Origin: Akkermansia muciniphila
GTDB taxonomy: Bacteria; Verrucomicrobiota; Verrucomicrobiia; Limisphaerales; SIAT01
DNA length: 64,000 nt
Direction: 5' to 3'
NCBI GenBank assembly: GCA_945900775.1
Contig: CAMDJP010000008.1
Location: forward strand, 5,296 to 69,295
The notes under the pieces are model-generated. The model ran no database searches. It worked only from the letters and a program-made list of their open reading frames with translations, and was not told the DNA's origin. The translations under genes and the position numbers were made by a program. Every line of letters begins with the position of its first letter. Position 1 is the first letter of the stretch. This document shows, one piece after another, positions 23,132-52,356 of the stretch.

Positions 23132-23150
23132 GTCACAACCACCGAATTCC

Positions 23151-25529: not shown

Positions 25530-25538
25530 CACTGACTG

Positions 25539-28918: not shown

Positions 28919-29973
28919 AACAGTATCCACTCACCAAAATCCTCGTCGCAATCTTGGCGGCTGTGGTTTTCATCGCCGCCCCCGTCCAGTCGGTCCGGGC
29001 GCAGAGCCAAGAAGCCGGCGAGCAAATCGTGGGCGTGGCGCGCCTAACCCCGGAAGTCCGTGCCGCGATTACCAAGGGCTTGGATTATCTCGCCAAGGAG
29101 GGTGTGCAGAAAGCCGATGGGAGCTGGGGCAGTGGACAGAATGACGTGGCGGAGACGTCGCTCGGTCTCATGGCTTTTATGCTGAAAGGCTATGTTCCGG
29201 GCCGCGGTGGTCGTTACGGCGTAGTCATGGAAAACGCCGTCACCTATCTCATCAACAAAGGCAAGAGCCAGCGGGGATTCTTGGGGACTCCCAATAATCA
29301 CGCCGGCATGTATGAGCACGGTTTGGCTGTCCTTGCCCTGTCCGAAGCGTGGGGCCAAAGTAAGAATCCGGCCGTGGGTGTCGCCCTGCGCGCCGGCGTG
29401 GACATCATTCTCCGAGCCCAAAGCACCCTCGGTGGCTGGCGCTACTCGCCCGAGCCGTCGGACGCGGATCTTTCGATGACTGTCATGCAATTGGTGGCGC
29501 TCAATTCCGCACATGAGTCCGGTATCCAAGTTCCTACCGCCACCATTGAAAAGGCGGTCAAATACGTGATCTCCTGCCAGGAAGAGGGCAGTGGTGGGTT
29601 CCGCTATATGCCAGGGAGCGGCGAGGTTGGTTTCGCGCGCACCGCCGCCGGGGTGATGTCCCTCATTATGACGGGTCAACGCAACCACAAGTCTACCCAG
29701 CGCGGACTGGCTTTCCTGAAAGCCTACCCGAACAAGAAGTTTGAGAAAGGCTACCCTCGATTCCACTACGCTCACTACTATGCCATTCAGGCGATTTATC
29801 AGTCGGGCGAAACGGACTTTCAAAATTGGTATCCTAAAATCGCCACCACCGTTGTCTCCATGCAAGAGCAGGACGGGAGCTGGAGTGGGGAAGGCGGCAA
29901 AGCCTATGCCACAGGGGCCTCAATCCTCATTATCGGCGTGCCCTACCGCTTCCTGCCTATCTACCAGCGTTAG
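28915..29973 (+). CDS. Secreted prenyltransferase/squalene-cyclase-repeat (alpha/alpha-toroid) protein
   Basis: 352 aa with signal peptide ILVAILAAVVFIAAPVQSVRAQ. Terpenoid-cyclase-type repeats recur: DGSWGSG, LGGWRYSP, SGGFRYMP, DGSWSGEGG. It is too short for a true squalene-hopene cyclase and has no DxDD motif. The ATGA overlaps the upstream stop. Confidence 0.8.
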   Translation: MKQYPLTKILVAILAAVVFIAAPVQSVRAQSQEAGEQIVGVARLTPEVRAAITKGLDYLAKEGVQKADGSWGSGQNDVAETSLGLMAFMLKGYVPGRGGRYGVVMENAVTYLINKGKSQRGFLGTPNNHAGMYEHGLAVLALSEAWGQSKNPAVGVALRAGVDIILRAQSTLGGWRYSPEPSDADLSMTVMQLVALNSAHESGIQVPTATIEKAVKYVISCQEEGSGGFRYMPGSGEVGFARTAAGVMSLIMTGQRNHKSTQRGLAFLKAYPNKKFEKGYPRFHYAHYYAIQAIYQSGETDFQNWYPKIATTVVSMQEQDGSWSGEGGKAYATGASILIIGVPYRFLPIYQR

Positions 29974-30099
29974 CGTTGCGCGCCAGGCGATTGCCTGTAG
30001 CACCGAATACGTACTAATGACCATCCCATTTACCATTCGATGTCTGTCAAAGCGCAAGTCCTAGCCAGCGGATCATTTCTGTTGCGGCACAATTTCCTG

Positions 30100-35000: not shown

Positions 35001-35807
35001 GCCATCGACCTCACCACGGGAAAACAACTTTGGCGGCGCTACCTTCGCAGCTCCTCCCCTCCGGTAGCCAAAGGGGACGAATCTCGTTTGCTGCTTCTCG
35101 GCAACCTTTGGACGCCGAAACCCTCCCGTGTGACCCTCAACGCGCAGACCGGCCAGACCATCGCGGATTCCCCGGAAAAATCCGCATTACTACCCATGCT
35201 TTTCACCGTCCACGGCAACAGGGCCCCCGGCGTTTATCTCCTCCCTCCGGTGGGAGACCCAACGGTCTTCCAGCCACAGGCCGTCATTGCGGACCATGTC
35301 GGCGGGACTGGCGCTCCCTACTACCTCATCCGGCCCCGCGACGGCACTGACAAGACCCCCGAGGGCGTCTATCGCGCCGACGACCCATCCTACTTCTACA
35401 GAATCCCGAGCGCTGACGTCCTGTTCGATGGCGACTACGCCATCACCATGCAGGGCAAACTCGCGGTCACCGACCTCAAAGCCAAACGCCTCTTGCCGCT
35501 CCCTGCGACGGACGAAAAGGCGGCCATCAACCAACCGGGACTTCTCTGCCGCATCGGCCCCGATCGTTTGCTCAAAATCATCGGCAGAGGCGACGGGAAG
35601 AATCTCGTCTTCACCATTGATCTCCCGGGCGGGACAGTGACCGAGGGGGTCCTCGAAAATCCCGGTCAGGTCGAGGCATTCGCCAATGCGCACTACTTCA
35701 ACCCCGACGCCAACCCCCATCATGTCCGGCCGTTTCTTCCGACTTTCGACCGCGTTTTCCTGACCTACGACAACACCACCGTCACCGCCTGGGTCGCGGC
35801 TCCCTAG
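32034..35807 (+). CDS. Exported 1257-aa helical-solenoid + PQQ-like beta-propeller protein (paralog 1)
   Basis: The ATG at 32034 overlaps the HEAT gene stop (ATGA) and gives the signal-like MSARGHLLVLLSVLSGTLAALA. About 450 aa of helical/TPR-like sequence is followed by repeated BamB/PQQ-like blades (e.g. LIALDQRTGALAWEN, LAGLDVATGNARWHRSL, LQRLDARTGELIESRPW). A conserved C-terminal domain ends ...TAWVAAP. Confidence 0.8.
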   Translation: MSARGHLLVLLSVLSGTLAALAEPPPKDPRWEQAQKAYNEGFSDEGHRLLKALIADHPGDVDLAAACYEKIFDQEYRILPKHVPIKTQGQPMHSHWHATAHYTGVNSNMQIPPAVERILALERLGALSAHTAFLRTVGGACLEGGLNRRAYLELGQMLTRLRSENPRDPFWLIMEAHALSIMMRPEAGKLLNELRKRIDLDHTDDGLRSDWMVADALLSHGMAQPVMAKPAVPEGSPLPALAPVNPDDPEDPWRKVLDRSPKDIPGEVDRLIALATASRDLLMWVNTDGGGLLPTRALDLHLLSKPSAELEALRKLQETLVSPEAQAAARTEADILKLTRRYPWARSGQVLLLKIANEALWNARFESAWRSFHEVLLHTSDPALREAAQVGTWTAQGLSGGAAEVLAQPTAFEPAKTYPWMGRPTKGSEIRAALQAMVPPVPTVVAPALKDVRPHVVHLPPVSPWVINAHAEGGYSIDLQVAGKTLLATGRNLIAAYDAAKPGTPLWTHAQQFPSEKNNRSPFPGYYRGLIKDGAMITRLGQHELPNGLAAFSLATGDPLWTSLNAVANGFSGEYLNHAHPIPLGDPVQADGRLFYLQTTVTSGRADGRPVFSLVCFDPATAQPSWATPIIDSKVDVGNLQHNSSFTYGNAVTVHRGAVYSCSNVGHIARSDVRDGRVEWAHKYAYRGGDNGGRVGSSPVIAGSNVIFLPRNAERLIALDQRTGALAWENVMFRAFEVLGLWQDTLVVRGPNHLAGLDVATGNARWHRSLTQRAFNRGQLIADSVYLGQPDALQRLDARTGELIESRPWALQPERALSFTISGQDLYIATDQPREDPRQKVGQPPGPEVASSAQPLKLPLKRAWSLMRPGASLLLPPAGVNPGTAVLLGDGMIECLEVNERGGTRWRRFLDLKTNQLLVRFIGKNGEILMLMEQGESPDNPPRALGIDTKTGATLWQTTVPPWRDPPPSFCGTVMIFASHAHHLGGGAMAIDLTTGKQLWRRYLRSSSPPVAKGDESRLLLLGNLWTPKPSRVTLNAQTGQTIADSPEKSALLPMLFTVHGNRAPGVYLLPPVGDPTVFQPQAVIADHVGGTGAPYYLIRPRDGTDKTPEGVYRADDPSYFYRIPSADVLFDGDYAITMQGKLAVTDLKAKRLLPLPATDEKAAINQPGLLCRIGPDRLLKIIGRGDGKNLVFTIDLPGGTVTEGVLENPGQVEAFANAHYFNPDANPHHVRPFLPTFDRVFLTYDNTTVTAWVAAP

Positions 35808-35811
35808 CAGC

Positions 35812-38800
35812 ATGAAACGTCCGATCCTGATTCTCACCGCCCTTTTCCTCGGAGCGCTCGTTGCGTCTGCGGCCCCGCCCGCCGACGACCCCCGCTGGGC
35901 AGCCGCGCTCGAGGCTTACGCGAAGGGCCAGCGTGAAGTGGGGCACCGTCTCCTCTCCGCCCTTGCCGCGCAGCATCCCGGCGATCTCGACCTGGCCGCG
36001 GCGTGCTACGAGAAAATTCTCAAGAACGTAAATCTCCCCTCCCCGAAAGCTCCAACGACCACCGACAACCCCTGGATTACCTTCGCCACGGAACGCCTGC
36101 TCGCCCTCGAACGCCTCGGCGCCCACTCTGCGAACACAGATCTCATCCGTTCCGCCGCCTCCGTCGAGAGTCGGCTCGCTGTCGCCAGGAGTCGTTTCCT
36201 TGATGCGTTCGAGACAATCTCCCGGCTGCGCGCCGAAAATGACCATGACCTTTTCTGGCGCATGACGGAGGTCATCATCCTCCGCAGTATGGGGCTGCCC
36301 GAAGCCGACGCACTAATCGCCGAACTCAAGCAGGACTACGATCCCGACCATTCCGACCCCGACAAGCGCGCCCAGTGGGAATGGATCGCCGCGGAAATCA
36401 CCACGCCTCACAGTCCTCCACTAGTCGCCCGTCCGGCGTGGACTCGGCAGCTCGTGCGCCTGCCCGTCGCCAAACCTGCTCCTCCCGAAGGCAGTCCGAT
36501 CAGCCTGCTTTCACCCGACGATCCTGATGACCGCTGGCGCGTCGTCACCGATCCCTCTCCAAGAGGAGGTGCCGGCGCCGTGGATCGCTTCCTCGGCTAC
36601 ACCTACGCCCTCGCCGAGGGCGTGCCGTGGCGTGCCGGTCCCGGTTTGCTCGATTCCAACCGGGCGCTCAACCTGCACCTGCTCAGCAAACCTGCCGCCG
36701 AACTCGAAGCCCTGCGCCAAGAGCAGGAAGCGCAATTCGTCCGTGAAGCACAGACCGCAGCCCGCACCGAGACGGGCGTCCTAAAAGTAACCCGGCGCTA
36801 CCCGTGGTCGCGATCGGCCCAGACGCTCCTGCTGAAGTTCGCCAGCGAGGCACTCTGGGACGGCCGCTTCGAATCCGCCTGGCGCAGCTTTCACGATGTG
36901 CTCCTCTACGCCTCTGATCCCGCGCTCCGCGAGGCCGCCCAGATCGGCATTTGGACTGCCCGCGCCCTCTCCGGCGGAGCGGCGGAAGTGCTCGCGCAAC
37001 CCGCCGCCTTCGAGCCCGGCAAGACCTACCCGTGGATGGGGCGGCCGACCAAAGGCGCAGAAATTCGCGCCGCGCTCCAGGCCACACTTCGGTCCGTGCC
37101 GCCGGTCGCAGCGCCGTCGCTCAGCGCTGTTCGCCCGCATGTCCTGAACCTTCCGCCGGTGGCTCCGTGGCCGTCGGGTGAGTCTTCGGCGGGCTTTGGC
37201 GTCGATCTCCAAGTGGCCGGCAACAGAGTCGTGGCCAGCGCGCGCAATGTTATCGCCGCCTACGACGTCGCCAAACCCGGCGCCCCGTTGTGGGTCCATT
37301 TACGGCACCGCGCCGCCGCCAACCCCCAGAACTACTGGTCAGGCTACTACCGCTGCCTCATCGAGGACGGCACGCTTTTCTCACGCTGGAGCGTGACCGA
37401 ACTGCCCAGCGGTCTGGCCGCCTTTGATCTCGCCAGCGGCGATCCGCTTTGGACTGCTCTAAGTGAAAACCCGTGGAACGATCGTCGCGGAGTGCAGACT
37501 CCGGGTTCCAACGCTCGAAAAAGGCAGCCGCTGCGTTTCTCGGTGCCCATGGGCGACCCGGTTCGAGCGGATGGCCTTCTCTTTTACCTGCAATGGGATT
37601 CCGCGCATGATCTCCACGCCAAACAAGGCACACACCTGAACCTCGTTTGTTTCGACCCGGGCACCGGTCAACCTCGCTGGACGACCTCGCTCACCGATCA
37701 CCGATTTGCGGGAGATTTCCGCGGGCCCACCACCGCCATCTACGGCAACTCCGTCACGGTCCATCGCGGAGCGGTTTACAGTTGCAACAACTCCGGCCAG
37801 ATCTTCCGCTCCGACGTGCGTGACGGCCGCATCGAATGGGCCCATAACTATCGCCGCCACCCCACGAGCGCGGAGTTTCTCGGCAGCGCCCCCATCGTCG
37901 CCGGCAGCAGTGTCATCTTTCTGCCCCGCGATTCGGGAGTCGCCGTCGCGCTTGATCAGCGCACCGGCTTTCTCGTCTGGGAAAATCCCTTGATCCGCGG
38001 CGCCGAGGCCCTCGGCATTTGGCAGAACACCCTCGTGGTACGCGGTGTCGCCATTCTCGCTGGGCTTGATCTCGCGACGGGCAAGACTCGCTGGTCCCGG
38101 AATCTGACGGGGCGCACCCTCGACCGCTCCCAGCTCATCGCGGACTCCATCTACCTCGGCGGAGGCGATGCCCTCGTGCGGTTCGACGCCCGCACCGGCG
38201 AACTGCTCGAAAGCCGCCCTTGGGCGCTCCAATCGGAACGGGCCCTCACTTTCACTTTCTCCGGTCAGGATCTTTACATCGTAACGGACCGGCCCGCCGA
38301 CGACCCTCGCCAAAAAGTGGGCCAGCCCCTCGGACCAGAACTGGCCTCGGCTGCAGCCCCGCTCAAGCTGCCCATGCAGCGTGCGTGGTCGCTCTCGCGT
38401 CCCGACGCCACTTTCGCGCTGCCGCCCGCGGGCGTCAGCGCTGGCAGCGCCTACGTCTTCAGCGACGGTCTCATCGAGTGCCTCGATGTGAACCAGCGCG
38501 GCACCATCCGCTGGCGCCGCTTCCTCAATCTCACCAGCCCCACTTTGTTCTTCGCCGGCGACACGCTCATCCTGCGCGAAAGAGAAGTCCAACATCTCCC
38601 GTCCGCCCGCGTGCTCGCCCTCGATTCCAAGACCGGAGTGACGCTCTGGGAAGCGCCCGTGCCCATCAACCACCAGCACGCTTTCCACTTCGGCAGCCGC
38701 ATACTTTTCCACGACGGACGCGAAAAATTCGTCGCCCTCGACCTCGCCAGCGGTCAGCGGGCCTGGCAAACCACGCTGGTCACGGCGAATACCCAGAATC

Positions 38801-40038
38801 CGCACTGGGACGGCACGCGCCTGCATCTTTTCCGCGCTCCCGCCACGGGCAATCTCGAGCACTTTACCCTCGACCCTGCCACGGGCGACACGGTCGCGCA
38901 TCGAGAGGTTGACGCGAAGCCGCCAGGTGAACCTGCCACAGCCATTCGCCAGCTTGAAGACGGCACCTACGAAATCCGTTTCGCACCCACCTCGGCCCGG
39001 CATTTTCGCGTGACCACGCTCTCCAGCTCCGGCGGTGTGGGTGACTATGCTTCTGCTGCGGAGTTTTATCTGCTCGGCCCAGATGGTCAGCGCCTGCCGC
39101 GCGACCGGTGGATCGCGACCGGCGATCACGAACCCAACGCCGGCAACAGAGCGCAGCCCCGAAATGCTATTGATGGAAATCCGAATTCATGGTGGCACTC
39201 CCAGTGGATGAGTGGCCAGACGCCGCACCCGCACTACTTCATCATCGACCTCGGCGTCGCCCAGACCATTAGCGGTTTTCAATACCTGCCGGCGAAGATT
39301 ATCAACAACAACGGGCTGATCGCCGATTACGAACTCCACGTGAGCCAGAACAACAAGGCATGGGGCGCGCCGGTATCGAAGGGATGTTTTTCCGAGAACG
39401 TCAGGGTCAGGACTTCCGAGATTGCGACTTCCGTCCCCGCCTTCTTCGAGGTGCGCCGCCAGTTGCGAGGGGGACTCCAGTCCATCTATCGCTACGACCT
39501 CGCGGGCAAGGGCAGCCTCGTGAACGAAATCGGCAGCATCCTGCGCGTAGCCGAGCCTTACAGTCTCATTGGCGGCCGCCAAAAAATCGACAGCCCGGAT
39601 ATGCTGACCTTCCGTCGCGCCGACGACCCTTCCTACGTTTTCCCGTTCCCGCTCCCGAACGACCGGGTAGGCCACCTCCAATTCGACGGCGACTACGCCA
39701 TTACCCAGCAGGGCAAACTCGAAATCATCGACTTGAAATCGAAACGCCAACTGCCACTCCCCACCGACGAAAAAGCGCTCATCCACCAGGCGGGATTCCT
39801 TTGTCGCATCGGCCCCGATCGTTTACTCAAAATCGTCAACCGCGACGGGAAGCATTTCGCCGTCACCATCGACCTCAAGAGCGGGACAGTCACCGAGGGC
39901 ATTCTCGAGAATCAGGGCGAGCCAATCACCATGAGCCGCTTTCTCCAGCCCGGCGGCAAATCCCGCTATCTCACCTTCGACCGCACCTTCCTCTCCTACG
40001 ACAACACCACGCTCACCGCTTGGGTCACCGCGCCATAG
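35812..40038 (+). CDS. Exported 1408-aa helical-solenoid + PQQ-like beta-propeller protein with inserted F5/8 type C (discoidin) domain (paralog 2)
   Basis: Signal-like MKRPILILTALFLGALVASAA. It is collinear with paralog 1, with long stretches of high amino-acid identity. The extra segment ...YEIRFAPTSARHFRVTTLSS...AIDGNPNSWWHSQW...PHYFIIDLGVAQTISGFQYLP...IADYELHVSQNNKAWG is a discoidin-type domain. The protein ends ...TAWVTAP. Confidence 0.85.
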   Translation: MKRPILILTALFLGALVASAAPPADDPRWAAALEAYAKGQREVGHRLLSALAAQHPGDLDLAAACYEKILKNVNLPSPKAPTTTDNPWITFATERLLALERLGAHSANTDLIRSAASVESRLAVARSRFLDAFETISRLRAENDHDLFWRMTEVIILRSMGLPEADALIAELKQDYDPDHSDPDKRAQWEWIAAEITTPHSPPLVARPAWTRQLVRLPVAKPAPPEGSPISLLSPDDPDDRWRVVTDPSPRGGAGAVDRFLGYTYALAEGVPWRAGPGLLDSNRALNLHLLSKPAAELEALRQEQEAQFVREAQTAARTETGVLKVTRRYPWSRSAQTLLLKFASEALWDGRFESAWRSFHDVLLYASDPALREAAQIGIWTARALSGGAAEVLAQPAAFEPGKTYPWMGRPTKGAEIRAALQATLRSVPPVAAPSLSAVRPHVLNLPPVAPWPSGESSAGFGVDLQVAGNRVVASARNVIAAYDVAKPGAPLWVHLRHRAAANPQNYWSGYYRCLIEDGTLFSRWSVTELPSGLAAFDLASGDPLWTALSENPWNDRRGVQTPGSNARKRQPLRFSVPMGDPVRADGLLFYLQWDSAHDLHAKQGTHLNLVCFDPGTGQPRWTTSLTDHRFAGDFRGPTTAIYGNSVTVHRGAVYSCNNSGQIFRSDVRDGRIEWAHNYRRHPTSAEFLGSAPIVAGSSVIFLPRDSGVAVALDQRTGFLVWENPLIRGAEALGIWQNTLVVRGVAILAGLDLATGKTRWSRNLTGRTLDRSQLIADSIYLGGGDALVRFDARTGELLESRPWALQSERALTFTFSGQDLYIVTDRPADDPRQKVGQPLGPELASAAAPLKLPMQRAWSLSRPDATFALPPAGVSAGSAYVFSDGLIECLDVNQRGTIRWRRFLNLTSPTLFFAGDTLILREREVQHLPSARVLALDSKTGVTLWEAPVPINHQHAFHFGSRILFHDGREKFVALDLASGQRAWQTTLVTANTQNPHWDGTRLHLFRAPATGNLEHFTLDPATGDTVAHREVDAKPPGEPATAIRQLEDGTYEIRFAPTSARHFRVTTLSSSGGVGDYASAAEFYLLGPDGQRLPRDRWIATGDHEPNAGNRAQPRNAIDGNPNSWWHSQWMSGQTPHPHYFIIDLGVAQTISGFQYLPAKIINNNGLIADYELHVSQNNKAWGAPVSKGCFSENVRVRTSEIATSVPAFFEVRRQLRGGLQSIYRYDLAGKGSLVNEIGSILRVAEPYSLIGGRQKIDSPDMLTFRRADDPSYVFPFPLPNDRVGHLQFDGDYAITQQGKLEIIDLKSKRQLPLPTDEKALIHQAGFLCRIGPDRLLKIVNRDGKHFAVTIDLKSGTVTEGILENQGEPITMSRFLQPGGKSRYLTFDRTFLSYDNTTLTAWVTAP

Positions 40039-40647: not shown

Positions 40648-40877
40648 GAATACAGCTGTCGAGATTTGAGCCGACGACCGACGGTTTACAAACCAATCGC
40701 GCTGCATTTTTTATAAGACCCACCTGCGAAGTGTGAGCTCGTTCCTTGCAGTCAACCCAGGCCCATTTTCGATGTCCTCAAAACGTCCATTTCTAGCTCT
40801 GGCGAAGACCTTTCCCCTTGCATCAGGGCGTCATCCCGCTTGACCGCCTCGCGCTGGATTGCGAAGGTTTAAGGATC

Positions 40878-42137
40878 ATGAAAGCTATTCTGTTGCTCGT
40901 CGCCCTCGTCTTTACATTCGCTGCCCAAGCCCAGACCGCTCACTCGTGGAAGAAACTCCAGCTCAGTACCGAATTCTGGAGCGAAGGCGCGCACATCGGC
41001 GACTTCAACAAAGACGGCAAGATGGACGTGGCCAGCGGCCCGTACTGGTACGCTGGGCCGGACTTCAAGGCGAAGTACGAGATTTACCCCGCGACGAAAC
41101 GCTCCAAGAGCACCAAGAACGGCCAGCCCGTGGAGTTCGCCGGTTTCAAGGGCGCGCTCGGCAGCGAGAACGATTACTCCGACAACTTCATCTCCTACAC
41201 GCACGACTTCAACAACGACGGCTGGACCGACTACCTCGTCAACAGTTTCCCGGGCAAGGAGACTTTCTGGTACGAGAACCCGCAGAACAAGACCGGCCAC
41301 TGGAAACGTCACGTCGCCGCCGATGTCACCGACAACGAATCGCCCATGTTCGCCGACATCACCGGTGACGGAAAGCCCGAGCTCATCTTCCACACCGGCG
41401 GGCACCTCGGCTACGCCACGCCTGACCCGAAGGCCCCGACTGCTAAATGGACCTTCCACAAAATCTCTGCCAAAGGCCCCTGGCAACGGTTCACCCACGG
41501 CATCGGCATCGGCGATGTGAACGGTGACGGCAAGTCCGATTTCCTGATGAAAGAAGGTTGGTGGGAACAGCCCGCCTCCCTCACCGACACGCTCGAGTGG
41601 ATTTTCCATCCCACACCCTTTGGCGCCGGTGGCGCGCAGATGTACACGTACGACGTCAACGCCGACGGTCGCCCCGACGTCATCACCAGCCTCGTCGCCC
41701 ACGGCTACGGCCTCGCATGGTTTGAGCAACTCGCCGAGAAAGATGAAAAAGGGCATCCCAAGTTCAAACAGCACACCATCACGGGCAGCAAGCCCGAGGA
41801 GAACAAGTACGGTGTTAAATTCTCACAAATCCACGCCATCGACCTCGTGGACATGGACGGCGACGGTCTCAAAGACATCGTCACTGGCAAACGTTTCTGG
41901 GCCCACGGCCCCACCGGCGATGCCGAGCCCAACGCGGCCGCCGTCGTCTATTGGTTTCGCCTCACCCGCACCGCCGGCAAAGGCGTGGACTGGGTCCCGC
42001 AACGGATTGATGATGACTCCGGCATCGGCACCCAAGTGCTCGCCGCTGACGTCAACGGCGACAAACTTCCCGACGTCATCGTCGGCAACAAGAAGGGCAC
42101 CTTCGTCCACATCCACGTCCTCGGCAAAGCCGACTAA
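40878..42137 (+). CDS. Secreted FG-GAP/VCBS repeat (seven-bladed propeller) protein
   Basis: The ATG at 40878 is preceded by AAGGA and gives the signal peptide MKAILLLVALVFTFAAQAQ. Seven Ca-binding-type FG-GAP loops are present: DFNKDGKMDV, DFNNDGWTDY, DITGDGKPEL, DVNGDGKSDF, DVNADGRPDV, DMDGDGLKDI, DVNGDKLPDV. Confidence 0.85.
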   Translation: MKAILLLVALVFTFAAQAQTAHSWKKLQLSTEFWSEGAHIGDFNKDGKMDVASGPYWYAGPDFKAKYEIYPATKRSKSTKNGQPVEFAGFKGALGSENDYSDNFISYTHDFNNDGWTDYLVNSFPGKETFWYENPQNKTGHWKRHVAADVTDNESPMFADITGDGKPELIFHTGGHLGYATPDPKAPTAKWTFHKISAKGPWQRFTHGIGIGDVNGDGKSDFLMKEGWWEQPASLTDTLEWIFHPTPFGAGGAQMYTYDVNADGRPDVITSLVAHGYGLAWFEQLAEKDEKGHPKFKQHTITGSKPEENKYGVKFSQIHAIDLVDMDGDGLKDIVTGKRFWAHGPTGDAEPNAAAVVYWFRLTRTAGKGVDWVPQRIDDDSGIGTQVLAADVNGDKLPDVIVGNKKGTFVHIHVLGKAD

Positions 42138-44757: not shown

Positions 44758-44885
44758 AAGAGGACCTTCAATTTAATTTGGGAATCATGATTTGACCAGA
44801 TTGCGAAAGAGCAGACAAGCCTTCGCGATGCGAATCTTTTCATGACAAACCGTTGGAGCTTTGCCGCGGTCGAGTTAAGTTCTCG

Positions 44886-45575
44886 ATGGCCGGCGCACGC
44901 CGGCTAACCATGATCCGTCAGCAAGTCTTTACGACGGCGGGGGAACTATGCCCGCCCGAGCCGCCTCACGCCTCACAGCTTGCGGTGCTGCACAGCATCT
45001 ATCCGCTCGCGGCGGCGCTCGCAGCGGTCGGCATGCCGCGGCTGTCGTGTCGGGCGAACGCTGCTCTTTTCCTGGAACGCTACGCTGAGCGCGTCTGCCC
45101 AGTAGAGCTTGCGGTAGTTCAGCAGGCATTCACGCACGCGGCGAGCGGCCATTCGCGTGAGTTGATCGCGCTCGACCAATCGTTGCCGAAGCTGGCGGAA
45201 CTTCGGGAACTGGCTGGGGCGAGCGCGCTGGCTGGGCGGCTGCAAAGCGAGCATCTGCGTCCGCTGCGCGATGAACGTCTAATGCAGCGGTACTGGGAAG
45301 CGGTGGAAGGTGGCGCGGTGAGTGGTCACCATTGGGTCGTGTTTGGCATGACGCTCGCGCTCTACTCGGTGCCGCTGCGGCAGGGGCTGCTCGGATTTGG
45401 ACGCGAGACACTGGCGGGACTATCGATTGCAGCCGGTAAACAGCTTGTGTTGCCGGAAACCGATTTGGCTGAGCCGCTGGCTTCGGCAACGGAGCGACTG
45501 CCGAGCGTGGTCGAGGGAGTCTTGAGTGGTGGCGGTTGGTCGGGCTTAGCGACGAGCCTCAGAACAGGCCGTTGA
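44886..45575 (+). CDS. Hypothetical protein with weak UreF-like resemblance
   Basis: The start is uncertain (ATG at 44886 or 44910; the track uses 44853). The segment GHHWVVFGMTLALYSVPLRQGLLGFGRETLAGLSIAAGK loosely resembles the UreF core (HxxxxFGxxxxxxGxxxxxxxxxYL...). No urease genes are nearby. The 3' end overlaps mlaD convergently by 17 nt. Confidence 0.4.
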   Translation: MAGARRLTMIRQQVFTTAGELCPPEPPHASQLAVLHSIYPLAAALAAVGMPRLSCRANAALFLERYAERVCPVELAVVQQAFTHAASGHSRELIALDQSLPKLAELRELAGASALAGRLQSEHLRPLRDERLMQRYWEAVEGGAVSGHHWVVFGMTLALYSVPLRQGLLGFGRETLAGLSIAAGKQLVLPETDLAEPLASATERLPSVVEGVLSGGGWSGLATSLRTGR

Positions 45576-46629
45576 AGAGGATGCCGATGACGCTGAGCGG
45601 GCCTTGGTCCTCTAGTCCCTCGGTGGCCTTGTCCAGCTTCTGCAAGGTCATCTTCGCGTTCTTGAAGAGGCTGTCGTCGTTGATGAGTTTGCCGATGGAG
45701 CCTTGGCCCTGATTTATTTTCTGGAGAATCTCGCGGAGGTTGGTCATCGCCTGCGTGGTCTCCTTGTAGAGCGCCTCGTCCTTGGTGAGCTTGCCGAGAG
45801 TGCCTTTGCCTTCGTTGATGTCGCTGACAACTTTCTTGACCTCTCCAAGTGTCTCCTTAGCCGTGCCAAGTGTCTCCTTCATCGTGCCGATGGCGCTGCG
45901 GGCGTCGGTGAGCATCGACTTGGCTTCGCTGAAGGTGTTTTTGGTTTCTGGAACGAGGGTGGCCAAGTCCTTCGCGGCCGTCTGAAACTCCTTCGAGCTG
46001 GCGAGCAGGGAATTGTGGAGGGCGTCATCGCCGATGAGCTTGCCGAAGGTGCCTTTGCCATCGACGACGTCCTGCGAGATGCGCTGGAGGTTGGCGAAGA
46101 TGATGGCGAAGCGGGGATTGTTGTGCTTCAAGAAATCGGTCATCGGGCCGAGAACGTTCTGGATGCTGTCGCCGCTGAAGGTCTTGGTGAGGTTCTCGAC
46201 TCCACCGGCGACGCTATCGAGTTTGGAGATGAGAGAGGAGAGGTCGGCTGTCTCGGTGGTCTTGAGCACATCGTCGTGCTTTAAGTGCGTGCGGTCGCCG
46301 CCGAGGGCGAGGGAGACGAAGTTCTGGCCCATCATGCCCGTGAATTTGACTGTTGCGACGCTGTCGGTACGGATTTTGTTCTCACGCGTCAGCCGCATCG
46401 AGACGCGGACCTTGCTCTCGTGGAAGCCGATCTTCTCGACGCGGCCGACCTGCACGCCGGCCATCTTCACGGGATCGCCGACCTTGAGTTCCTGCACATT
46501 GAGGAAGTCGCCGTGCAGCGTGTAGCCGGGCTTGAAGAGGCCGATGCCGGAGAGTTCCAGCACGAGCACGGCTGCGAAGGCCACCAGCACGAAATAGATG
46601 CCGAGGCGGGTCTCGAGGGTATTTTTCAT
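45559..46629 (-). CDS. mlaD: MCE/MlaD-family substrate-binding protein with extended helical C-terminus
   Basis: 356 aa with an N-terminal TM helix. The MCE domain reads GYTLHGDFLNVQELKVGDPVKMAGVQVGRVEKIGF. The long C-terminal region carries repeated GKGT(F/L)GKL(I/T) motifs. Confidence 0.85.
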   Translation of the reverse strand: MKNTLETRLGIYFVLVAFAAVLVLELSGIGLFKPGYTLHGDFLNVQELKVGDPVKMAGVQVGRVEKIGFHESKVRVSMRLTRENKIRTDSVATVKFTGMMGQNFVSLALGGDRTHLKHDDVLKTTETADLSSLISKLDSVAGGVENLTKTFSGDSIQNVLGPMTDFLKHNNPRFAIIFANLQRISQDVVDGKGTFGKLIGDDALHNSLLASSKEFQTAAKDLATLVPETKNTFSEAKSMLTDARSAIGTMKETLGTAKETLGEVKKVVSDINEGKGTLGKLTKDEALYKETTQAMTNLREILQKINQGQGSIGKLINDDSLFKNAKMTLQKLDKATEGLEDQGPLSVIGILFNGLF

Positions 46630-46641
46630 AAAATCACTCCA

Positions 46642-47400
46642 TTAGACGGGTTTGAAGTTCGCGTTCAGGAATTCTTGGATGACCGAGTTCGGGGTCGCGC
46701 GGACCTCGTCGGCCGAACCGACGCAGAGGATGCGGCCGTTGTGGATGATTGCGATACGGTCGGCAATCCCGAAGGCGAGGTCACGATCGTGCGAGACGAC
46801 AATCGAGGTGGCGTGGATGCGTCGGCGCATATTCACAATCTCCTGGCCAATGGTCACGGCCATCAATGGGTCCAGTTCGCTCGTTGGCTCGTCGTACAGG
46901 ATTAGCTCCGGCTCCATCACCAGCGCGCGGGCGATGGAAGCGCGCTTCTTCATGCCACCGGAGAGCTCGTTGGGCATCCGATCCTTCGCCCCTTTGAGGC
47001 CGACGAGGTCGAGCTTCGCTGCGACAATGGCCTCGATTTCCGGTGCCGGTTTCAACCGGTGCTCCGATAAATACAATCCGACATTCTCGCCGACGGTCAA
47101 TGAGTTGAGCAGCGCGCCGGACTGGAAGACCATCGCCATCCGATGCCGGTCCATCAGGCCGGGCGTTGCGATGGGCTCGCCGCCGATGAGGACCTCGCCC
47201 GCGTCGGGGGTCTCCAACCCGATAAGGTGCTTGAGCAGGACGCTCTTGCCGCTGCCGCTTGGGCCCATGATAACGAAGATTTCGCCCGGTTCCACCCGCA
47301 GGTCTACGCCATGGAGGACCTCCTCACCGCTGAAGCTCTTGCGCAACCCACGTACTTCCACGCGGCCGCCGTGGCCGGAGTTGTGGTTCGAGGCGTTCAT
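46642..47400 (-). CDS. mlaF: ABC transporter ATP-binding protein, MlaF type
   Basis: 252 aa. Walker A GPSGSGKS, signature LSGGMKKRASIARAL and Walker B LILYDEPTSELD are present. It lies between mlaE and mlaD. Confidence 0.9.
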   Translation of the reverse strand: MNASNHNSGHGGRVEVRGLRKSFSGEEVLHGVDLRVEPGEIFVIMGPSGSGKSVLLKHLIGLETPDAGEVLIGGEPIATPGLMDRHRMAMVFQSGALLNSLTVGENVGLYLSEHRLKPAPEIEAIVAAKLDLVGLKGAKDRMPNELSGGMKKRASIARALVMEPELILYDEPTSELDPLMAVTIGQEIVNMRRRIHATSIVVSHDRDLAFGIADRIAIIHNGRILCVGSADEVRATPNSVIQEFLNANFKPV

Positions 47401-48140
47401 CAGAGATGAATCATCATCCGAGTGAGAAAGTAGTCGAGGATTAGAATCAGCACGATTGAATTAACGACGGCCTTGGTCACCGACCGGCCGATGCCGCGCG
47501 GGCCGCCGATGGTCTGGAGGCCCTGGTGACACGAGACGATGCCGATGGCCAGGGCGAAGGCGAAGCTCTTGAGCAGGCCGTTGGCGAGGTCGCCTAGTTG
47601 GACGAGACTCTCGAGGTTGCTGAAGTAGGTCTGGTACGGAACGCTGATTAGGTCGTTGTTGGCTGCGACCACCGCGCCGCCGAGCCAACCGATGAGGATG
47701 GCGAAGATTACGAGCGTGGGCAGCGCAATGCAGATGGCCACTATCCGGGGCAGTACGAGATAATTTATCGGGCTGATATTCATCGTGCGCAGCGCATCGA
47801 TTTCCTGATAGACCGTCATCGAGCCGATTTCTGCCGCCATTGCGGAGCCGATGCGCCCCGCGATTAGTATGGCCATCATCACGGGGCCGAGCTCTTTGCA
47901 CATCGAGAGGCCGACCATCCCGCCTAGCACATTGCCGAGACCTCGCTCGACCAGCAACGGGCCGGTCTGCAGCGCCAGCACGCCACCGATGAAGAGTGAT
48001 AAGACACAGGCCATGAAGAGACTGGCGTTGCCAATTTCGAAGAGCTGTTCGAGTACCTTGCGCCGGTGTATCCACAGGAGCGGCAGCGCCTGGAGCGTAC
48101 GCCAGAACAGCAGAATGGCTTGGCCGATGTCGTGGAACAT
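47400..48140 (-). CDS. mlaE: ABC transporter permease, MlaE type
   Basis: 246 aa polytopic protein. The pattern ...GPLLVERGLGNVLGGMVGLSMCKELGPVMMAILIAGRIGSAMAAEIGSMTVYQEIDALRTM... is characteristic of MlaE/TTG2B permeases. The stop overlaps the mlaF start by 1 nt. Confidence 0.9.
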   Translation of the reverse strand: MFHDIGQAILLFWRTLQALPLLWIHRRKVLEQLFEIGNASLFMACVLSLFIGGVLALQTGPLLVERGLGNVLGGMVGLSMCKELGPVMMAILIAGRIGSAMAAEIGSMTVYQEIDALRTMNISPINYLVLPRIVAICIALPTLVIFAILIGWLGGAVVAANNDLISVPYQTYFSNLESLVQLGDLANGLLKSFAFALAIGIVSCHQGLQTIGGPRGIGRSVTKAVVNSIVLILILDYFLTRMMIHL

Positions 48141-48146
48141 ACTGTG

Positions 48147-49598
48147 CTAGGGATTTGCGGGCTTCGTCTCCGCGCCGAACGGGATGAAAAACAGCCGCCA
48201 GCGAGAACTCTCCTTGGTCTGTTGATACTGTAGCAGGCCGAAGAGGAGCGAGCAATTTTTGGATTCCGGCGTTTCGTCCTGCCGGTAGAGATTCCAGAGG
48301 AACGACTGGCTCGTTGCGCCGGTCTTCCCGTTCTTTTCTGTGCGCCAGATGGACCAGAGCGGCGACCAGTTTCGCTCGACGGCCGTGTTACCAAGCAGCA
48401 GCGGTTCGAACGGAGCGATGATCTGCGTGCGCTCGCTGCCGTCCAGCTCGCGGCGATGCGTGAAGAGCGGCCAGAGGGCGTGCCGTTCACGCGTGGCACC
48501 GGTGGCGGTGTTCCGCTCGTGAGTGTCTTGGTAGAGGAAAAGGAGGTAACGGCGATTTTCGCGCTCGAGCGGTGGGGCCTGAACGCTCGAGCTGCGGTAG
48601 AGCGGCCAGAGCAGGAACTCGTTGGTCTGGCTTGCGGTGTGAGTCTTGCCGTAGAACGGCCAGAAGCGTGCGCCGTTCTTGTTCTCGCTACTGGTCGAGA
48701 CGATGAACGGCCACGGTGCACCGTACTCCACGGATTTCTTCTCGTGATCGTTGATGCGGTAGAAGAACGGCCAGAGGACGCTCTGATACTCGCGCAGGGC
48801 GGAGCGTTGTGTGATGAAGAGCGGCAGCAACGCGTGCTGCGTCTGCGCGTTAGTCGTGCCGATGCCGAGACGGTTGTGGTGGTAGAGCGGCCAGAGCGCG
48901 AAGGACTTCTCGTGCCCGCCGATGATCGTCTCGTCACCGAACCCATCTTTACGCGTCGTCACATCTTTCTTCTCGTGGCCGATCAGCGGCCAGAATTGCC
49001 AGCCGTCGAGCTTTTCGCCGTGGCGCAGATGGAAGAAAGGGAAGAGGTAATTCTCGGTCACGACGTCCCGCTTGCGGGTCTTCCCGTAGAGCGGGAAGAG
49101 GAGGAACTCGATTTCATCCCGGAGCAGGCGGTTCTTAATCTGGCCGTAGATGGGGAAGAAGGCCGTGTAATTCTCCTCTGGGTTCGGCGAGCGCTGCCTC
49201 CAGTAGAAGGGGAAAATCGTGACGCGATCGGCAGTAGTGCCGTCCTGCCGGCCACTGCCGCCAAAGCTGATGAGCTGGAAAAGTTGCCAGCGCGATTCCT
49301 TACCGGTGCGGTTGTAGGAGAGCAGCGGGTAGAGGAAGTCGTACTCCTCGAAGTCTGTGTCGTACTCGGTGTGCCACGAGAGCAGCGGCGGGATGGCCCA
49401 CTGCGCGTGCGTGCCACTTCGTTCGCTGCCCCAGAACGGTCCGAGCGCCTCGGTGCGTTCGCCCTCGCGTAACGTGAGCCGGTACTCGTGATAGAGCGGA
49501 CCGGAGGCAGCCGCGCTTGCCATCAGTGTGGCGGATAGCGCGAAAACGATTATGGCAATGCGTGATAACATCCTTAAAACAGTGGAACGACTCGGCAC
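48147..49598 (-). CDS. Exported 483-aa aromatic-proline hairpin-repeat protein, unknown family
   Basis: Signal-like RIAIIVFALSATLMASAAASG. There are about 16-20 irregular ~22-aa repeats with a hydrophobic-aromatic-Pro-hydrophobic-aromatic core followed by polar or basic residues. Examples: LYPLLSYNR, IFPFYWRQR, FFPIYGQIK, LFPLYGKTR, LFPFFHLRH, FWPLIGHEK, LWPLYHHNR, LWPFFYRIN, FWPFYGKTH, LWPLYRSSS, LWPLFTHRR. It lies 6 nt upstream of mlaE and 25 nt downstream of the MMPL gene. Confidence 0.75.
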   Translation of the reverse strand: MPSRSTVLRMLSRIAIIVFALSATLMASAAASGPLYHEYRLTLREGERTEALGPFWGSERSGTHAQWAIPPLLSWHTEYDTDFEEYDFLYPLLSYNRTGKESRWQLFQLISFGGSGRQDGTTADRVTIFPFYWRQRSPNPEENYTAFFPIYGQIKNRLLRDEIEFLLFPLYGKTRKRDVVTENYLFPFFHLRHGEKLDGWQFWPLIGHEKKDVTTRKDGFGDETIIGGHEKSFALWPLYHHNRLGIGTTNAQTQHALLPLFITQRSALREYQSVLWPFFYRINDHEKKSVEYGAPWPFIVSTSSENKNGARFWPFYGKTHTASQTNEFLLWPLYRSSSVQAPPLERENRRYLLFLYQDTHERNTATGATRERHALWPLFTHRRELDGSERTQIIAPFEPLLLGNTAVERNWSPLWSIWRTEKNGKTGATSQSFLWNLYRQDETPESKNCSLLFGLLQYQQTKESSRWRLFFIPFGAETKPANP

Positions 49599-49623: not shown

Positions 49624-52356
49624 CTAGTCGGGCAGAACAACTTGGCTGCCGATACCTTTAACCCTCCAACCCGACTGCGTCAATAAAGTCAGCACAGCTG
49701 GCAGGAAGGTGAGGCCTGCCAGCATGCAGGTCGCCGTGCCCACGGCCATGATGAAGCCGAGGCTGGCGATGCCCTGATGCTGCGCCAGCATCAGGCTGCC
49801 GAAGCCGGTCGCCGTGGTCAGCGCCGAGACGAGCACCGCTTTGCCGGTGCTCTTGGCGAGAATGCCCGGATTCTGCTCCTCCGTGAAACGGTTGAGGATG
49901 TGGATACCGTTCGTCACGCCGACGCCGATCACCAGTGGCAGCGTCATGATGTTCGCCGGGTTGAACATCACTCCGCATGCGCCCATCACACCAATCATCC
50001 ACGCTGTACCGAGTACCACCGGCAGTAGCGATAGGATTACGCACGAGATGTTTCGAAAATGGATGAAGGCGAGCACCGCGATGGCGCCGAGCGCGTACCA
50101 CGCGGCTTTGATGTAACTGGTCTTGAGCAGCTCGGTGTACTCGTAGAGCTGCACCGGCGTACCGGTGGCGTTCGGCGCGACCTTCCGCACCTGCTCCACG
50201 AACTCCTGCTGCGGCCCGCGCTGCCACACGTCGCCTTTCGGATAGACCTGCAGCAGGTGACGGCCCGTGCGGCCGATGAACCGTTCGCGCAGCGCGGCTG
50301 GGAATTCCTCCGGTCGGAGCCCGCCGCGGTCGTGTTGATCACGCAGCGAAGCGAAGGTAGCCTGTATATCTTCCAACAGCGCGCGCTGGAAGTCGGCAAT
50401 CTGCGTCGCGGCCACGCGCCGATTCTCAAGCATCGGGACGCGCAGACGATCGATAGTTCCCGAGAGTGATTCGAGTTCCTTGAGCAGCGCTTTGTCGCCC
50501 GCCTTTTTCACCTCGGAAATCGCCGCGCCCAAGTAGCCCTGAAAGGCGTAGAGCGTCCGGCTCAACTCCTCCACGTCCACAGGCGCGCGGTCCACCGGCG
50601 CGAAGCGGATCGCCCCCGCGGCGGCTTTGATTTCGTGAATCACGCCGAGCTTGCGGCCGGGATTCTCGGCGAGGAATTCCGTGAGCGACTTCACATCCGC
50701 CACCGCTGGTAGCTTATTAAGCTTCTCTTCCAGTAGGAAAGCTTGCTGCGGCGTGTCCGCGACCACGGCGGCGAAGAGCACCGAGTTTGTGGCGGACTGG
50801 ATTAACTGCCGCTCCGTCTGCACCGCCGGGAGATTGGCCGACTGCATATTGAGTAGGTTGTAATCGAAGTGGACCTTCGAGAATTGCGACGCGGACAGGG
50901 CGCAGAGCGCGACTGTGAGGCCTAGGACCGTCCACGGGCGGTCGAGCCAGTAGCGCTCGAGGCGCGCGCGCCCATTTGTGTCCACCGGGGGATGCGGCAT
51001 GGCGTGGTCCAGCGCGTTCTGTCGGCCACGCAGCAGTAGCGCCGGCAACGCGGTCATCATCGGGACGAGACAGATGAGCAGGCCGCCGCCGGTAATGATA
51101 CCCATCTCTTGGATGCCCCGGAAATCGGTCAGCGTCATCGCGAGGAAGGCGCCGGCGGTGGTGAAGCAGCCGGTGAAGATACCCAGCCCTGTATTCGCCA
51201 TCGCCAGTTCCAAGGACTCGCGCTCGCTTTTGCCGTTGCGCAACTCCTCTTCATAGCGCGTTACGAGGTGGACACCGAAATCAATCGCTAGCCCGATGAG
51301 GATCGGCGCGAAGGTGATGGTGAGTAGATTCAAATGGCCAACGACCAGTGTCGTGAAGCCCATCGTGTAGGCGAGACCGAGGATGAGGCTGAACACAGCC
51401 TTCAACGGGCGGCCGGTCTCGTGATAGCCATAGATAAAAATGAGCGCGGTGAGCAGGAGCGAGACGACGGTGGCAAGGGCGGTGTCCACCTGCACCTGCG
51501 CCATCTCGTCCATCTCCAGCACGGGCTCGCCCGTCACGCCCACGCTCACGCCCGGCACCTCGTGCTTCGTGATCGCGACGAGTTCGCGCAGTCGTCGGAC
51601 AGCCGCTTCGTTGAGCTCCGGTTTCGTTGCCAACGCGGCTACCAGATAGATTCGTCCGCTCGCGAAGGTTATGTGCAGCTCCTGTTCCGCTTCGGGATTG
51701 CCAATCAGCGCGGCGAAGCCCGGCGGCGGCGGTGGTCCGGTCCGTTCGATGGCGTCCGCTGCTTGGCCGATGATTTTCTGCAGCGCAGGCAGGGCTTTGA
51801 CAAGCTGGTGGTTTTGCTCATCGGTGTTCTTTCCGGCGGTGCGAAACTGCGAGTTCACCTGCTGCAGCAGCGAGTTCAGGTTCGTGACCGAGGCGAAAGT
51901 CTCGATGAACGGTGCGTAGTCGCGCAACGCCGCGCGCAACTCGCGAAGCTCCTCGAGCGGCGCGAAGAGTAGCGTCTTGTTTCCCAGCACGCGCAGGTCG
52001 CGCTTGTAGAAGATGCCGGTGAAGAGGTTCGTTTCCGCCTCCAGCCGCACGCCGAGCCGTTCCACGAACTGGCGGTTTTTCTCGGGCGTTTCGCTCTCGA
52101 CCACCACCACGAGATTGTCCTGCTGCGGGAATTCCTCGCGGAACTCGAGGAAGATTTTGTGGTACCGCTTCTCTGCGCCGACGAGGTCGTTGCGATCGGT
52201 ATGAAACTCTAGCTTCTGGACGGTGTAAACGACACAGACCGCCGCCAGCACCACCTGCGGCCAGAGGAACCAGCCGGGCCGGCGGAAAACCGCACCGGTG
52301 AGCGACGTCAACAGTCGTTCGGCCCAAGAAAGTTTGCGTGTCGAATGGTCGCTCAC
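49624..52356 (-). CDS. MMPL/RND-superfamily transporter, HpnN-like
   Basis: 910 aa with two 6-TM bundles, each followed or preceded by large periplasmic loops. The N-terminal pattern FRRPGWFLWPQVVLAAVCVVYTV...FPQQDNLVVVVESETPEKNRQFVERL...LLFAPLEELRELRAAL resembles hopanoid-transporter-like (HpnN) RND proteins (from memory). Confidence 0.8.
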   Translation of the reverse strand: MSDHSTRKLSWAERLLTSLTGAVFRRPGWFLWPQVVLAAVCVVYTVQKLEFHTDRNDLVGAEKRYHKIFLEFREEFPQQDNLVVVVESETPEKNRQFVERLGVRLEAETNLFTGIFYKRDLRVLGNKTLLFAPLEELRELRAALRDYAPFIETFASVTNLNSLLQQVNSQFRTAGKNTDEQNHQLVKALPALQKIIGQAADAIERTGPPPPPGFAALIGNPEAEQELHITFASGRIYLVAALATKPELNEAAVRRLRELVAITKHEVPGVSVGVTGEPVLEMDEMAQVQVDTALATVVSLLLTALIFIYGYHETGRPLKAVFSLILGLAYTMGFTTLVVGHLNLLTITFAPILIGLAIDFGVHLVTRYEEELRNGKSERESLELAMANTGLGIFTGCFTTAGAFLAMTLTDFRGIQEMGIITGGGLLICLVPMMTALPALLLRGRQNALDHAMPHPPVDTNGRARLERYWLDRPWTVLGLTVALCALSASQFSKVHFDYNLLNMQSANLPAVQTERQLIQSATNSVLFAAVVADTPQQAFLLEEKLNKLPAVADVKSLTEFLAENPGRKLGVIHEIKAAAGAIRFAPVDRAPVDVEELSRTLYAFQGYLGAAISEVKKAGDKALLKELESLSGTIDRLRVPMLENRRVAATQIADFQRALLEDIQATFASLRDQHDRGGLRPEEFPAALRERFIGRTGRHLLQVYPKGDVWQRGPQQEFVEQVRKVAPNATGTPVQLYEYTELLKTSYIKAAWYALGAIAVLAFIHFRNISCVILSLLPVVLGTAWMIGVMGACGVMFNPANIMTLPLVIGVGVTNGIHILNRFTEEQNPGILAKSTGKAVLVSALTTATGFGSLMLAQHQGIASLGFIMAVGTATCMLAGLTFLPAVLTLLTQSGWRVKGIGSQVVLPD

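Follow-up and report, generated by a model that had tools for sequence, protein, structure and literature searches.

Exported beta-hairpin repeat protein family encoded with MCE lipid transport genes in Verrucomicrobiota and other bacterial phyla

A stretch of 64,000 nucleotides from Akkermansia muciniphila (GTDB lineage Verrucomicrobiota, Limisphaerales; assembly GCA_945900775.1, contig CAMDJP010000008.1, positions 5,296 to 69,295 of the forward strand), called the window here and numbered from its first letter, carries a gene for an exported repeat protein of 483 amino acids, which we name REP. This protein is very probably a functional component of the MCE-type lipid transport system whose genes follow it. 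The MCE/Mla type of system is known; what is new to Pfam, NCBIfam, the PDB and the literature that was searched is REP, together with its repeat and the fold predicted for it. Here we describe the genomic setting of REP, its repeat and its predicted structure, and we also discuss the tentative proposal that it may dock the needle of the MlaD protein at the outer membrane.

Genomic setting and distribution of REP

The genes concerned, all on the minus strand, are given below in the order of transcription.

49624 to 52356, minus strand: HpnN-like RND/MMPL (HAE3) inner-membrane lipid exporter of 910 amino acids, 25 nucleotides upstream of REP (PF03176, E = 1.9e-40)
48147 to 49598, minus strand: REP, exported beta-hairpin repeat protein of 483 amino acids (474 from the ATG at 49571), from the open reading frame, motif statistics and AlphaFold2 models
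47400 to 48140, minus strand: MlaE permease, starting 6 nucleotides past the REP stop (PF02405, E = 1.1e-71; TIGR00056, 227 bits, above cut-off)
46642 to 47400, minus strand: MlaF-type ABC ATPase, overlapping MlaE by 1 nucleotide (PF00005, E = 5e-33; NF008809, 174 bits, below cut-off)
45559 to 46629, minus strand: long MlaD/MCE protein of 356 amino acids, 12 nucleotides past MlaF (PF02470, E = 1.3e-18)

The order is thus HpnN-like exporter, REP, MlaE, MlaF and MlaD, and the MlaE, ABC ATPase and MCE genes are adjacent and co-directional, as in an MCE/Mla-type ABC lipid transport operon. The original prediction, which was made from the letters of the window, had placed the repeat protein inside a lipid-transport operon, and this setting was borne out, the REP-MlaE-MlaF-MlaD block being kept across phyla. 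Within 80 species-level genome loci (48-78% identity) REP stands directly upstream of MlaE-MlaF-MlaD in about 70, and the MMPL-REP-MlaE-MlaF-MlaD order is found in nearly all; the same five-gene order was also seen on a marine Verrucomicrobiales contig. Seven distant members at about 25-33% identity all have REP-MlaE-(MlaF)-MlaD, with the REP stop overlapping the MlaE start in most of these loci, three of which carry taxon labels (Trichloromonadaceae, Opitutaceae and Dadabacteria). A reverse look-up from two MlaD homologues gave REP upstream in both cases.

An MMPL neighbour was not found in any of the seven distant REP loci, and because these blocks keep MlaE-(MlaF)-MlaD without it, the MCE transporter is taken as the core partner of REP. 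HpnN was also considered as the primary partner and was rejected on the same count (0 of 7). Among the loci examined, an RND gene upstream of REP occurs only in Verrucomicrobiota, where it is present in most loci. REP-MlaEFD without the MMPL gene was seen in four loci (L014, L032, L060 and L074 of our set), and in L014 (1317-6858) a HlyD gene, two MacB-type permease genes, an ABC ATPase gene and an unknown open reading frame of 266 amino acids precede REP-MlaEFD in place of the exporter.

The family is large: the scored candidates include over 2,000 hits, clustering at 50% identity gives 1,850 clusters with E <= 1e-3 (634 of them reach E <= 1e-30), and two peptide patterns alone match 444 species-level genomes. 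The lineages in Verrucomicrobiota include Pedosphaera, Limisphaerales, Verrucomicrobiales and Opitutales, and beyond this phylum the family reaches Trichloromonadaceae and Geobacteraceae (Desulfuromonadota), Thermodesulfobacteriota, Dadabacteria and Methylomirabilales, one cultured carrier being Thermosulfurimonas dismutans (TDIS_1632, WP_068671154.1; Thermodesulfobacteriota). The length is uniform (median 488 amino acids), and every named member is labelled "hypothetical protein". REP had no match in Pfam and NCBIfam at E <= 0.1, twelve diverse members had none in Pfam at E <= 1, the family profile had no match with PDB sequences, and full-text literature searches found no description of the family, in agreement with the earlier remark that it was not a recognised one.

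The repeat unit and the predicted fold

The REP reading frame has 483 codons from a GTG start at 49598 on the minus strand, and the plus-strand frame over 48147-49598 is riddled with stops and is not an open reading frame. Homologues begin aligning at Met10 (ATG 49571), and this ATG is probably the true start; the signal peptide is kept with either start codon. The two parts of the protein are as follows.

49503 to 49598, minus strand: signal peptide region, residues 1-32, with a basic n-region, the hydrophobic core IAIIVFALSATLMA and an SAAAS cleavage-type stretch, read from the sequence
48177 to 49502, minus strand: repeat core, residues 33-474, with about 23 hairpins joined by phi-W/F-P-phi-Y/F turns, from the repeat logo, the AlphaFold2 models and Pro conservation

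The N-terminus looks like a cleavable Sec signal. Its hydrophobic core has 14 residues, a lipobox Cys was not found on reading the REP N-terminus, and residues 4-28 were modelled as a helix in the first AlphaFold2 model. Cleavage is more probable than membrane anchoring because the core is short and is joined to an AxA-type site. Over the family, an N-terminal hydrophobic 12-mer is present in 259 of 317 members, and even a loose lipobox in only 23 of them. In public annotation the gene of the identical protein (P0001, 458 amino acids) is called from Met26 and so loses the signal peptide, which would mislead localisation predictors.

The repeats were evaluated in several ways. REP holds 13 strict x-[FWYL]-P-[LIFVM]-[FYWLIV] motifs and 14 by a looser pattern, against means of 0.63 and 0.71 and a maximum of 5 in 5,000 composition-preserving shuffles. 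A hidden Markov model (HMM) of the unit, 16 residues long and built from 13 query units, matches 13 times in the query (mean 0.02 and maximum 1 in 200 shuffles) and, in ten homologues at about 25-30% identity which were outside its training, it detects 5-10 units apiece. BLASTP against homologues also gave out-of-register secondary alignments (E = 6e-8 and 6e-6), which indicate a true internal duplication in REP. Adjacent units are spaced by 17-22 residues, or by 33-45 where a degenerate unit without Pro lies between them, and the repeat period is one hairpin of about 18-20 residues.

Fifteen repeat positions pooled over 400 family members gave the logo F/W(-4) x L(-2) W/F(-1) P(0) L/F(+1) Y/F(+2) G/S(+3) x x R(+6), in whose alignment the Pro is 98-100% conserved at all fifteen positions. 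Hydrophobic residues cluster at -4 to +2 around the Pro, and charged residues make up 35-70% at +6 to +11 and at -10 to -6. Since -4, -2 and +1 fall on one face of the sheet and -3 and +2 on the other, a hydrophobic band would be expected on both sheet faces beside the Trp-Pro edge.

AlphaFold2 was run with 42 close homologues (predicted local distance difference test score, pLDDT, 81.8; predicted template modelling score, pTM, 0.55) and, for the mature part only, with 150 diverse sequences (pLDDT 93.3; pTM 0.77). Both models have about 45 strands of 4-8 residues each (mean 6.0), whose residues are 33% charged and 27% polar, and two types of connection alternate between them, namely tight polar turns (GK, RD, EK, DV) and hydrophobic links of 3-4 residues (WPL, LFPF, LWPL). 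In these models the aromatic-Pro motif is the link between successive beta-hairpins, each predicted hairpin having a charged tip and a greasy base; the geometry of the motif is plausibly an aromatic-cisPro type VI turn. The fold is apparently an unbroken, uncapped succession of hairpins. The last hydrophobic strand is conserved in the family and is followed by a polar tail (median 16 residues), a terminal Phe being present in 11 of 317 members.

Both models were searched by Foldseek against the PDB, and the better one also against BFVD, with the top 50 matches listed per search. Among the matches listed there is local likeness to teneurin YD shells, WD40 and YWTD propellers, TCP10, OspA and ApoB100 in the PDB, and to MORN-repeat and baseplate proteins in BFVD, the best local matches to hairpin-repeat sheets having a probability of 0.84-1.0. 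No global fold match was found among them (TM-score <=0.19 in the PDB and <=0.24 in BFVD).

The original prediction had quoted 14 peptides, estimated about 16-20 repeats after a signal-like N-terminus, proposed a strand-turn-strand repeat as either a large beta-barrel or a beta-solenoid, and suggested an AlphaFold model with a Foldseek search as a check. All 14 peptides are present in REP, the basic n-region, 14-residue core and SAAAS stretch agree with a signal-like N-terminus, and the repeat estimate is about right, as 45 modelled strands correspond to about 22-23 hairpin junctions. Both models agree with strand-turn-strand repeats, and the suggested check returned a confident all-beta model with no known fold among the matches listed. 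The beta-solenoid was not upheld, there being no such fold among the top 50 matches listed per search and only hairpin-repeat sheets and propellers in its place; the barrel is weighed further below.

Covariation was analysed for closure of the sheet, at an effective number of sequences (Neff) of about 275-297. Mean-field direct coupling analysis was dominated by gap artefacts and noise, and a reduced-alphabet pseudo-likelihood model converged with long-range pairs indistinguishable from noise (Neff about 275). A mean-field band at a sequence separation of about 320-380 was not prominent in the pseudo-likelihood map, and no conclusion was drawn from it.

The MlaD partner and the possible place of REP

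The MlaD encoded with REP is always long (311-412 amino acids), with a transmembrane helix, one MCE domain and then a helical needle-type extension of about 200-250 residues (about 250 in the window MlaD). Public clusters that include a protein identical to the window MlaD carry PF28544 Helical_needle, the REP-linked MlaD proteins give weak or clear Helical_needle hits, and a barrel domain was seen in none of them. Mce1B of M. smegmatis (8FED_B) aligns with residues 7-264 of the window MlaD. Whole MlaD lengths among orthologues run as 323, 330, 337, 344, 351 and so on, and the region after the MCE domain (201-254 amino acids) also changes mostly in steps of seven (208, 215, 222; 235, 242, 249), which points to heptad insertions and deletions in a coiled-coil needle. 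The REP core has 441-446 amino acids in 72 of 77 loci. Correlating the length of the needle with that of REP gave a Pearson r of 0.11 (not significant) and a Spearman rho of 0.42, and REP is taken not to scale with the needle because its core is essentially constant.

The end of MlaD is also conserved and forms one further feature.

45562 to 45603, minus strand: MlaD C-terminal tail GPLSVIGILFNGLF-COOH, 14 residues, candidate docking peptide at the needle tip, from conservation

Its pattern G-P-(L/I)-(S/T)-x-(L/V/I)-G-...-(L/V)F-stop is present in nearly all of 73 REP-linked MlaD proteins and in all seven distant systems. In Verrucomicrobiota the tail reads ...LEDQGPLSV(L/I)G....(N/K)LF-COOH, and other lineages have GPITAVGVVANALF, GPLSALGVVLGTLF and APLQTLATAFGIFTVF. 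The tail resembles a docking strand placed at the tip of the needle.

Some further observations were made on the window MlaD. Three copies of G(K/Q)G(T/S)xGKLxxD(D/E)xL(H/Y/F) lie along its helical extension (DGKGTFGKLIGDDALH, EGKGTLGKLTKDEALY and QGQGSIGKLINDDSLF, at 46006-46059, 45757-45810 and 45658-45711 on the minus strand), and this region gives three stretches of match to NF047463, a Leptospira Mce model. A weak match (E = 0.0036) was obtained with PDB 13hr chain I, a recently deposited "Mce/MlaD domain-containing protein" of 312 amino acids whose sequence is shared by 8 chains, and which may be a solved long-MlaD system. A UreF-like open reading frame at 44853-45575 on the plus strand is convergent with MlaD and overlaps its 3' end by 17 nucleotides; a UreF gene has the same position in locus L090, and no other urease genes were noted among the nearby scanned open reading frames of the window.

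The export of REP, its tight co-encoding with the transporter, its fixed size and its polarised greasy and charged edges lead us to propose it as an outer-membrane-proximal needle dock. By analogy with known systems, it is a reasonable though still tentative possibility that REP is an exported subunit of fixed size which docks the MlaD needle at the outer membrane and does the job of MlaA or PqiC; in this role it would receive or cap the tip of the needle where the trans-envelope MCE lipid transporter meets the outer membrane. The family, its repeat and predicted fold class, the gene order and the type and tail of MlaD were observed, and the location of REP, its contact with MlaD and its dipping into the membrane are inferred, in the following form. 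One edge of the sheet would present more than 20 Leu-Trp-Pro-Leu/Phe-Tyr/Phe turns, which together with flanking residues may make a hydrophobic band about 12-15 Å high, and this band could be immersed in the inner leaflet of the outer membrane or else accommodate the tails of lipids, while the charged hairpin tips on the opposite edge would face the periplasm. Six copies of the MlaD tail (GP-LSVxG....LF-COOH) would be the likely contact of REP. In this way REP may take the place of MlaA, of PqiC or of the C-terminal beta-barrel found in Veillonella MlaD, none of which this type of MlaD has. In several Verrucomicrobiota orders, where an HpnN-like RND exporter would have been added upstream, REP may serve the exporter and the MCE system alike, as their common acceptor on the outer-membrane side.

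Several points weigh against this proposal or against a strict tie of REP to the MCE genes. In three loci (L065, L068 and L072) MMPL-REP occurs with no MlaEFD nearby, a photolyase gene being next in L072, so the MCE system is not an obligatory neighbour of REP. Covariation gave no usable long-range contacts, and the outer-membrane role is argued from analogy and from the polarity of the sequence. Further, Trp usually favours the membrane interface and not the bilayer midplane.

A more specific form of the proposal is that REP makes a single-layer ring or spiral of about 45 strands, whose Trp-Pro rim would encircle the tip of the hexameric MlaD needle and be sunk halfway into the inner leaflet of the outer membrane, and this we regard as unlikely. 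If true, such a monotopic beta "corral" would have no solved precedent either as a class of membrane protein or as a fold, and it would supply the outer-membrane terminus that the ancestral MlaEFD trans-envelope bridge is missing, a terminus which in Verrucomicrobiota the HpnN-type exporter would share.

Other roles were weighed against the dock. The best surviving of them, which we likewise hold to be unlikely, is a periplasm-spanning beta-ribbon or lipid slide, that is, a twisted sheet of about 200 Å (45 x 4.7 Å, by our own arithmetic roughly the width of the periplasm) along whose greasy Trp-Pro edge the tails of lipids would be led from one membrane to the other, with the MlaD needle working beside it or replaced by it. 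It agrees with the apparently uninterrupted, uncapped hairpin run, with the local likeness to elongated single-sheet repeats (TCP10, OspA, MORN and the teneurin YD shell) and with the low pTM of the shallow-alignment model, as for elongated folds. The pTM rose, however, with the deeper alignment, REP keeps a constant length while the needle varies by up to 53 residues, mostly in heptad steps, the largely charged and polar strand faces would leave no enclosed hydrophobic groove, and LptA, LptC, TamB and other AsmA-like proteins are absent among the top 50 matches listed in the two PDB searches. The original prediction had thought of an outer-membrane or periplasm-spanning lipid conduit; its outer-membrane side is retained as the best guess, whereas spanning is disfavoured by the fixed REP core beside a variable needle.

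An accessory near the inner membrane, around MlaFED or the periplasmic domains of the RND protein and like the mycobacterial Mce accessories, or else an envelope role loosely tied to lipid transport, is quite improbable. The place of REP as first gene in the operon, the overlap of its stop with the MlaE start in most distant loci and its occurrence with MMPL alone in three loci would suit such a role, but nothing links REP to the inner membrane, and its short hydrophobic core and AxA-type site point to a signal that is probably cleaved and does not serve as an anchor.

It is more doubtful still that REP is a soluble periplasmic lipid carrier or chaperone, an analogue of MlaC shuttling lipid between the transporters and the outer membrane. 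REP is exported, non-lipidated and rich in aromatic residues, and no MlaC is encoded with the MlaEFD cassette in the neighbourhoods seen. Against this, a protein of about 450 amino acids which is not similar to MlaC or to lipocalins, and in which no pocket is evident, does not look like the known carriers, its solubility would be difficult to maintain with a hydrophobic band on both sheet faces, and the long MlaD needle points to a bridge rather than a shuttle (PMC10665443).

Least probable is a BAM-inserted integral beta-barrel acting as the outer-membrane pore of the system; a large beta-barrel had also been raised in the original prediction. In its favour, REP is an exported all-beta protein whose hairpins are evenly spaced, the sequences of a few distant members finish at an aromatic or hydrophobic strand (e.g. 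P0269, ...KVFWYPLF), and there are weak Foldseek matches to VDAC. Against it, the short, charged and polar strands do not reach the >=9 residues of transmembrane strands, the loops are short on both edges, the polar tail after the last strand and the rarity of a terminal Phe do not fit a C-terminal beta-signal, no outer-membrane protein family of Pfam matched the query or the 12 diverse members, and the TM-score to barrels is <=0.15 among the matches listed.

Returning to REP as a dock, MlaEFD-only systems with a long, barrel-less MlaD are widespread outside Proteobacteria, and for the question of how they reach the outer membrane REP is a concrete candidate. The presence of an exported protein conserved directly upstream of MlaE in several phyla makes this question testable. 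That REP is paired with an HpnN-like exporter in Verrucomicrobiota may point to an outer-membrane station used in common for exporting and retrieving lipids, and a confidently predicted fold with 15 invariant aromatic-Pro turns and no solved analogue among the matches listed is of structural interest of its own.

Elsewhere in the window, a secreted protein of 1,408 amino acids with a PQQ/BamB-like beta-propeller and F5/8 type C domains is encoded at 35812-40038 on the plus strand and is preceded by a run of other very large open reading frames (20924-35807). An FG-GAP repeat protein of 439 amino acids follows at 40818-42137 on the plus strand, and like the former it is typical of the large exoproteins of Verrucomicrobiota.

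Comparison with known systems

The upstream RND protein of 910 amino acids is HpnN-like and scores below the model cut-offs (TIGR03480 HpnN, 606.7 bits against 751.85; NF052374, 377 against 1100). Its closest solved structure is HpnN of Burkholderia multivorans (5KHN, E = 9e-59, full length), and hopanoid biosynthesis genes (shc, hpn) were not found among the window open reading frames scanned. A 2025 preprint proposes Mla-like partners for HpnN, and these partners, HpnM, HpnS and HpnT, are unrelated to REP (PMC12324291).

In its predicted fold, REP locally resembles the MORN, YD/Rhs (teneurin shell), TCP10/G-box of CPAP and OspA proteins, which also arrange hairpin repeats of about 20 residues in a continuous antiparallel sheet. 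There is no profile-level sequence match or global superposition with them, and REP is distinct by its invariant aromatic-Pro turn and the Arg at +6; it cannot be counted as a MORN or YD protein, having no Pfam hit and a query TM-score (TMq) among the matches listed of <=0.16 to teneurins and <=0.17 to MORN proteins. Nor does it fall among the beta-propellers (WD40, YWTD, PQQ), as its period of about 18-20 residues differs from the roughly 40 of a four-stranded blade and the best propeller match listed has a TMq of 0.19 with a root mean square deviation of 17 Å. Periplasmic all-beta meanders that move lipids between membranes are the beta-jellyroll of LptA, LptC and the LptD N-terminus and the beta-taco of the AsmA-like TamB and YhdP. 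REP has no Pfam match to these families and none among the top 50 PDB Foldseek matches listed, so it is not placed with them, and by strand statistics and logo its strands are probably too short and polar for the U-shaped hydrophobic groove of such bridges.

Among the partners of MCE machines, MlaA has a helical structure, and PqiC and MpcA form small rings of mixed alpha/beta type. As is proposed for REP, MlaA (Mla), PqiC (Pqi) and MpcA (Brucella Mpc) are each a dedicated exported protein that is encoded or works with an MlaE/MlaF/MCE or PqiA/PqiB machine, at whose outer-membrane end they probably sit. They are lipoproteins, whereas REP is without a lipobox and is 450 amino acids of pure beta-hairpin repeat; REP also stands first in its operon instead of last. 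It matches no MlaA, PqiC or MlaC profile of Pfam or NCBIfam and is therefore not a member of these families.

The long MlaD of Veillonella parvula shares with the window MlaD the layout of transmembrane helix, MCE domain and long helical part, and there a minimal MlaEFD reaches the outer membrane alone, since MlaD bridges the envelope by a C-terminal outer-membrane barrel (Grasekamp et al. 2023, PMC10665443). The Veillonella protein ends in this barrel of 10 strands and the window MlaD in a 14-residue hydrophobic tail; the beta-rich element, which is part of MlaD there, is here the separate polypeptide REP and is apparently not membrane-spanning. For the long MlaD proteins of PVC and FCB bacteria, which are without an outer-membrane barrel, the same paper suggested that "as yet unidentified proteins" may be needed (PMC10665443). 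The Brucella Mpc operon mpcEFDA likewise joins MlaEF with a single needle-bearing MCE protein and adds a PqiC-like lipoprotein (PMC12436622).

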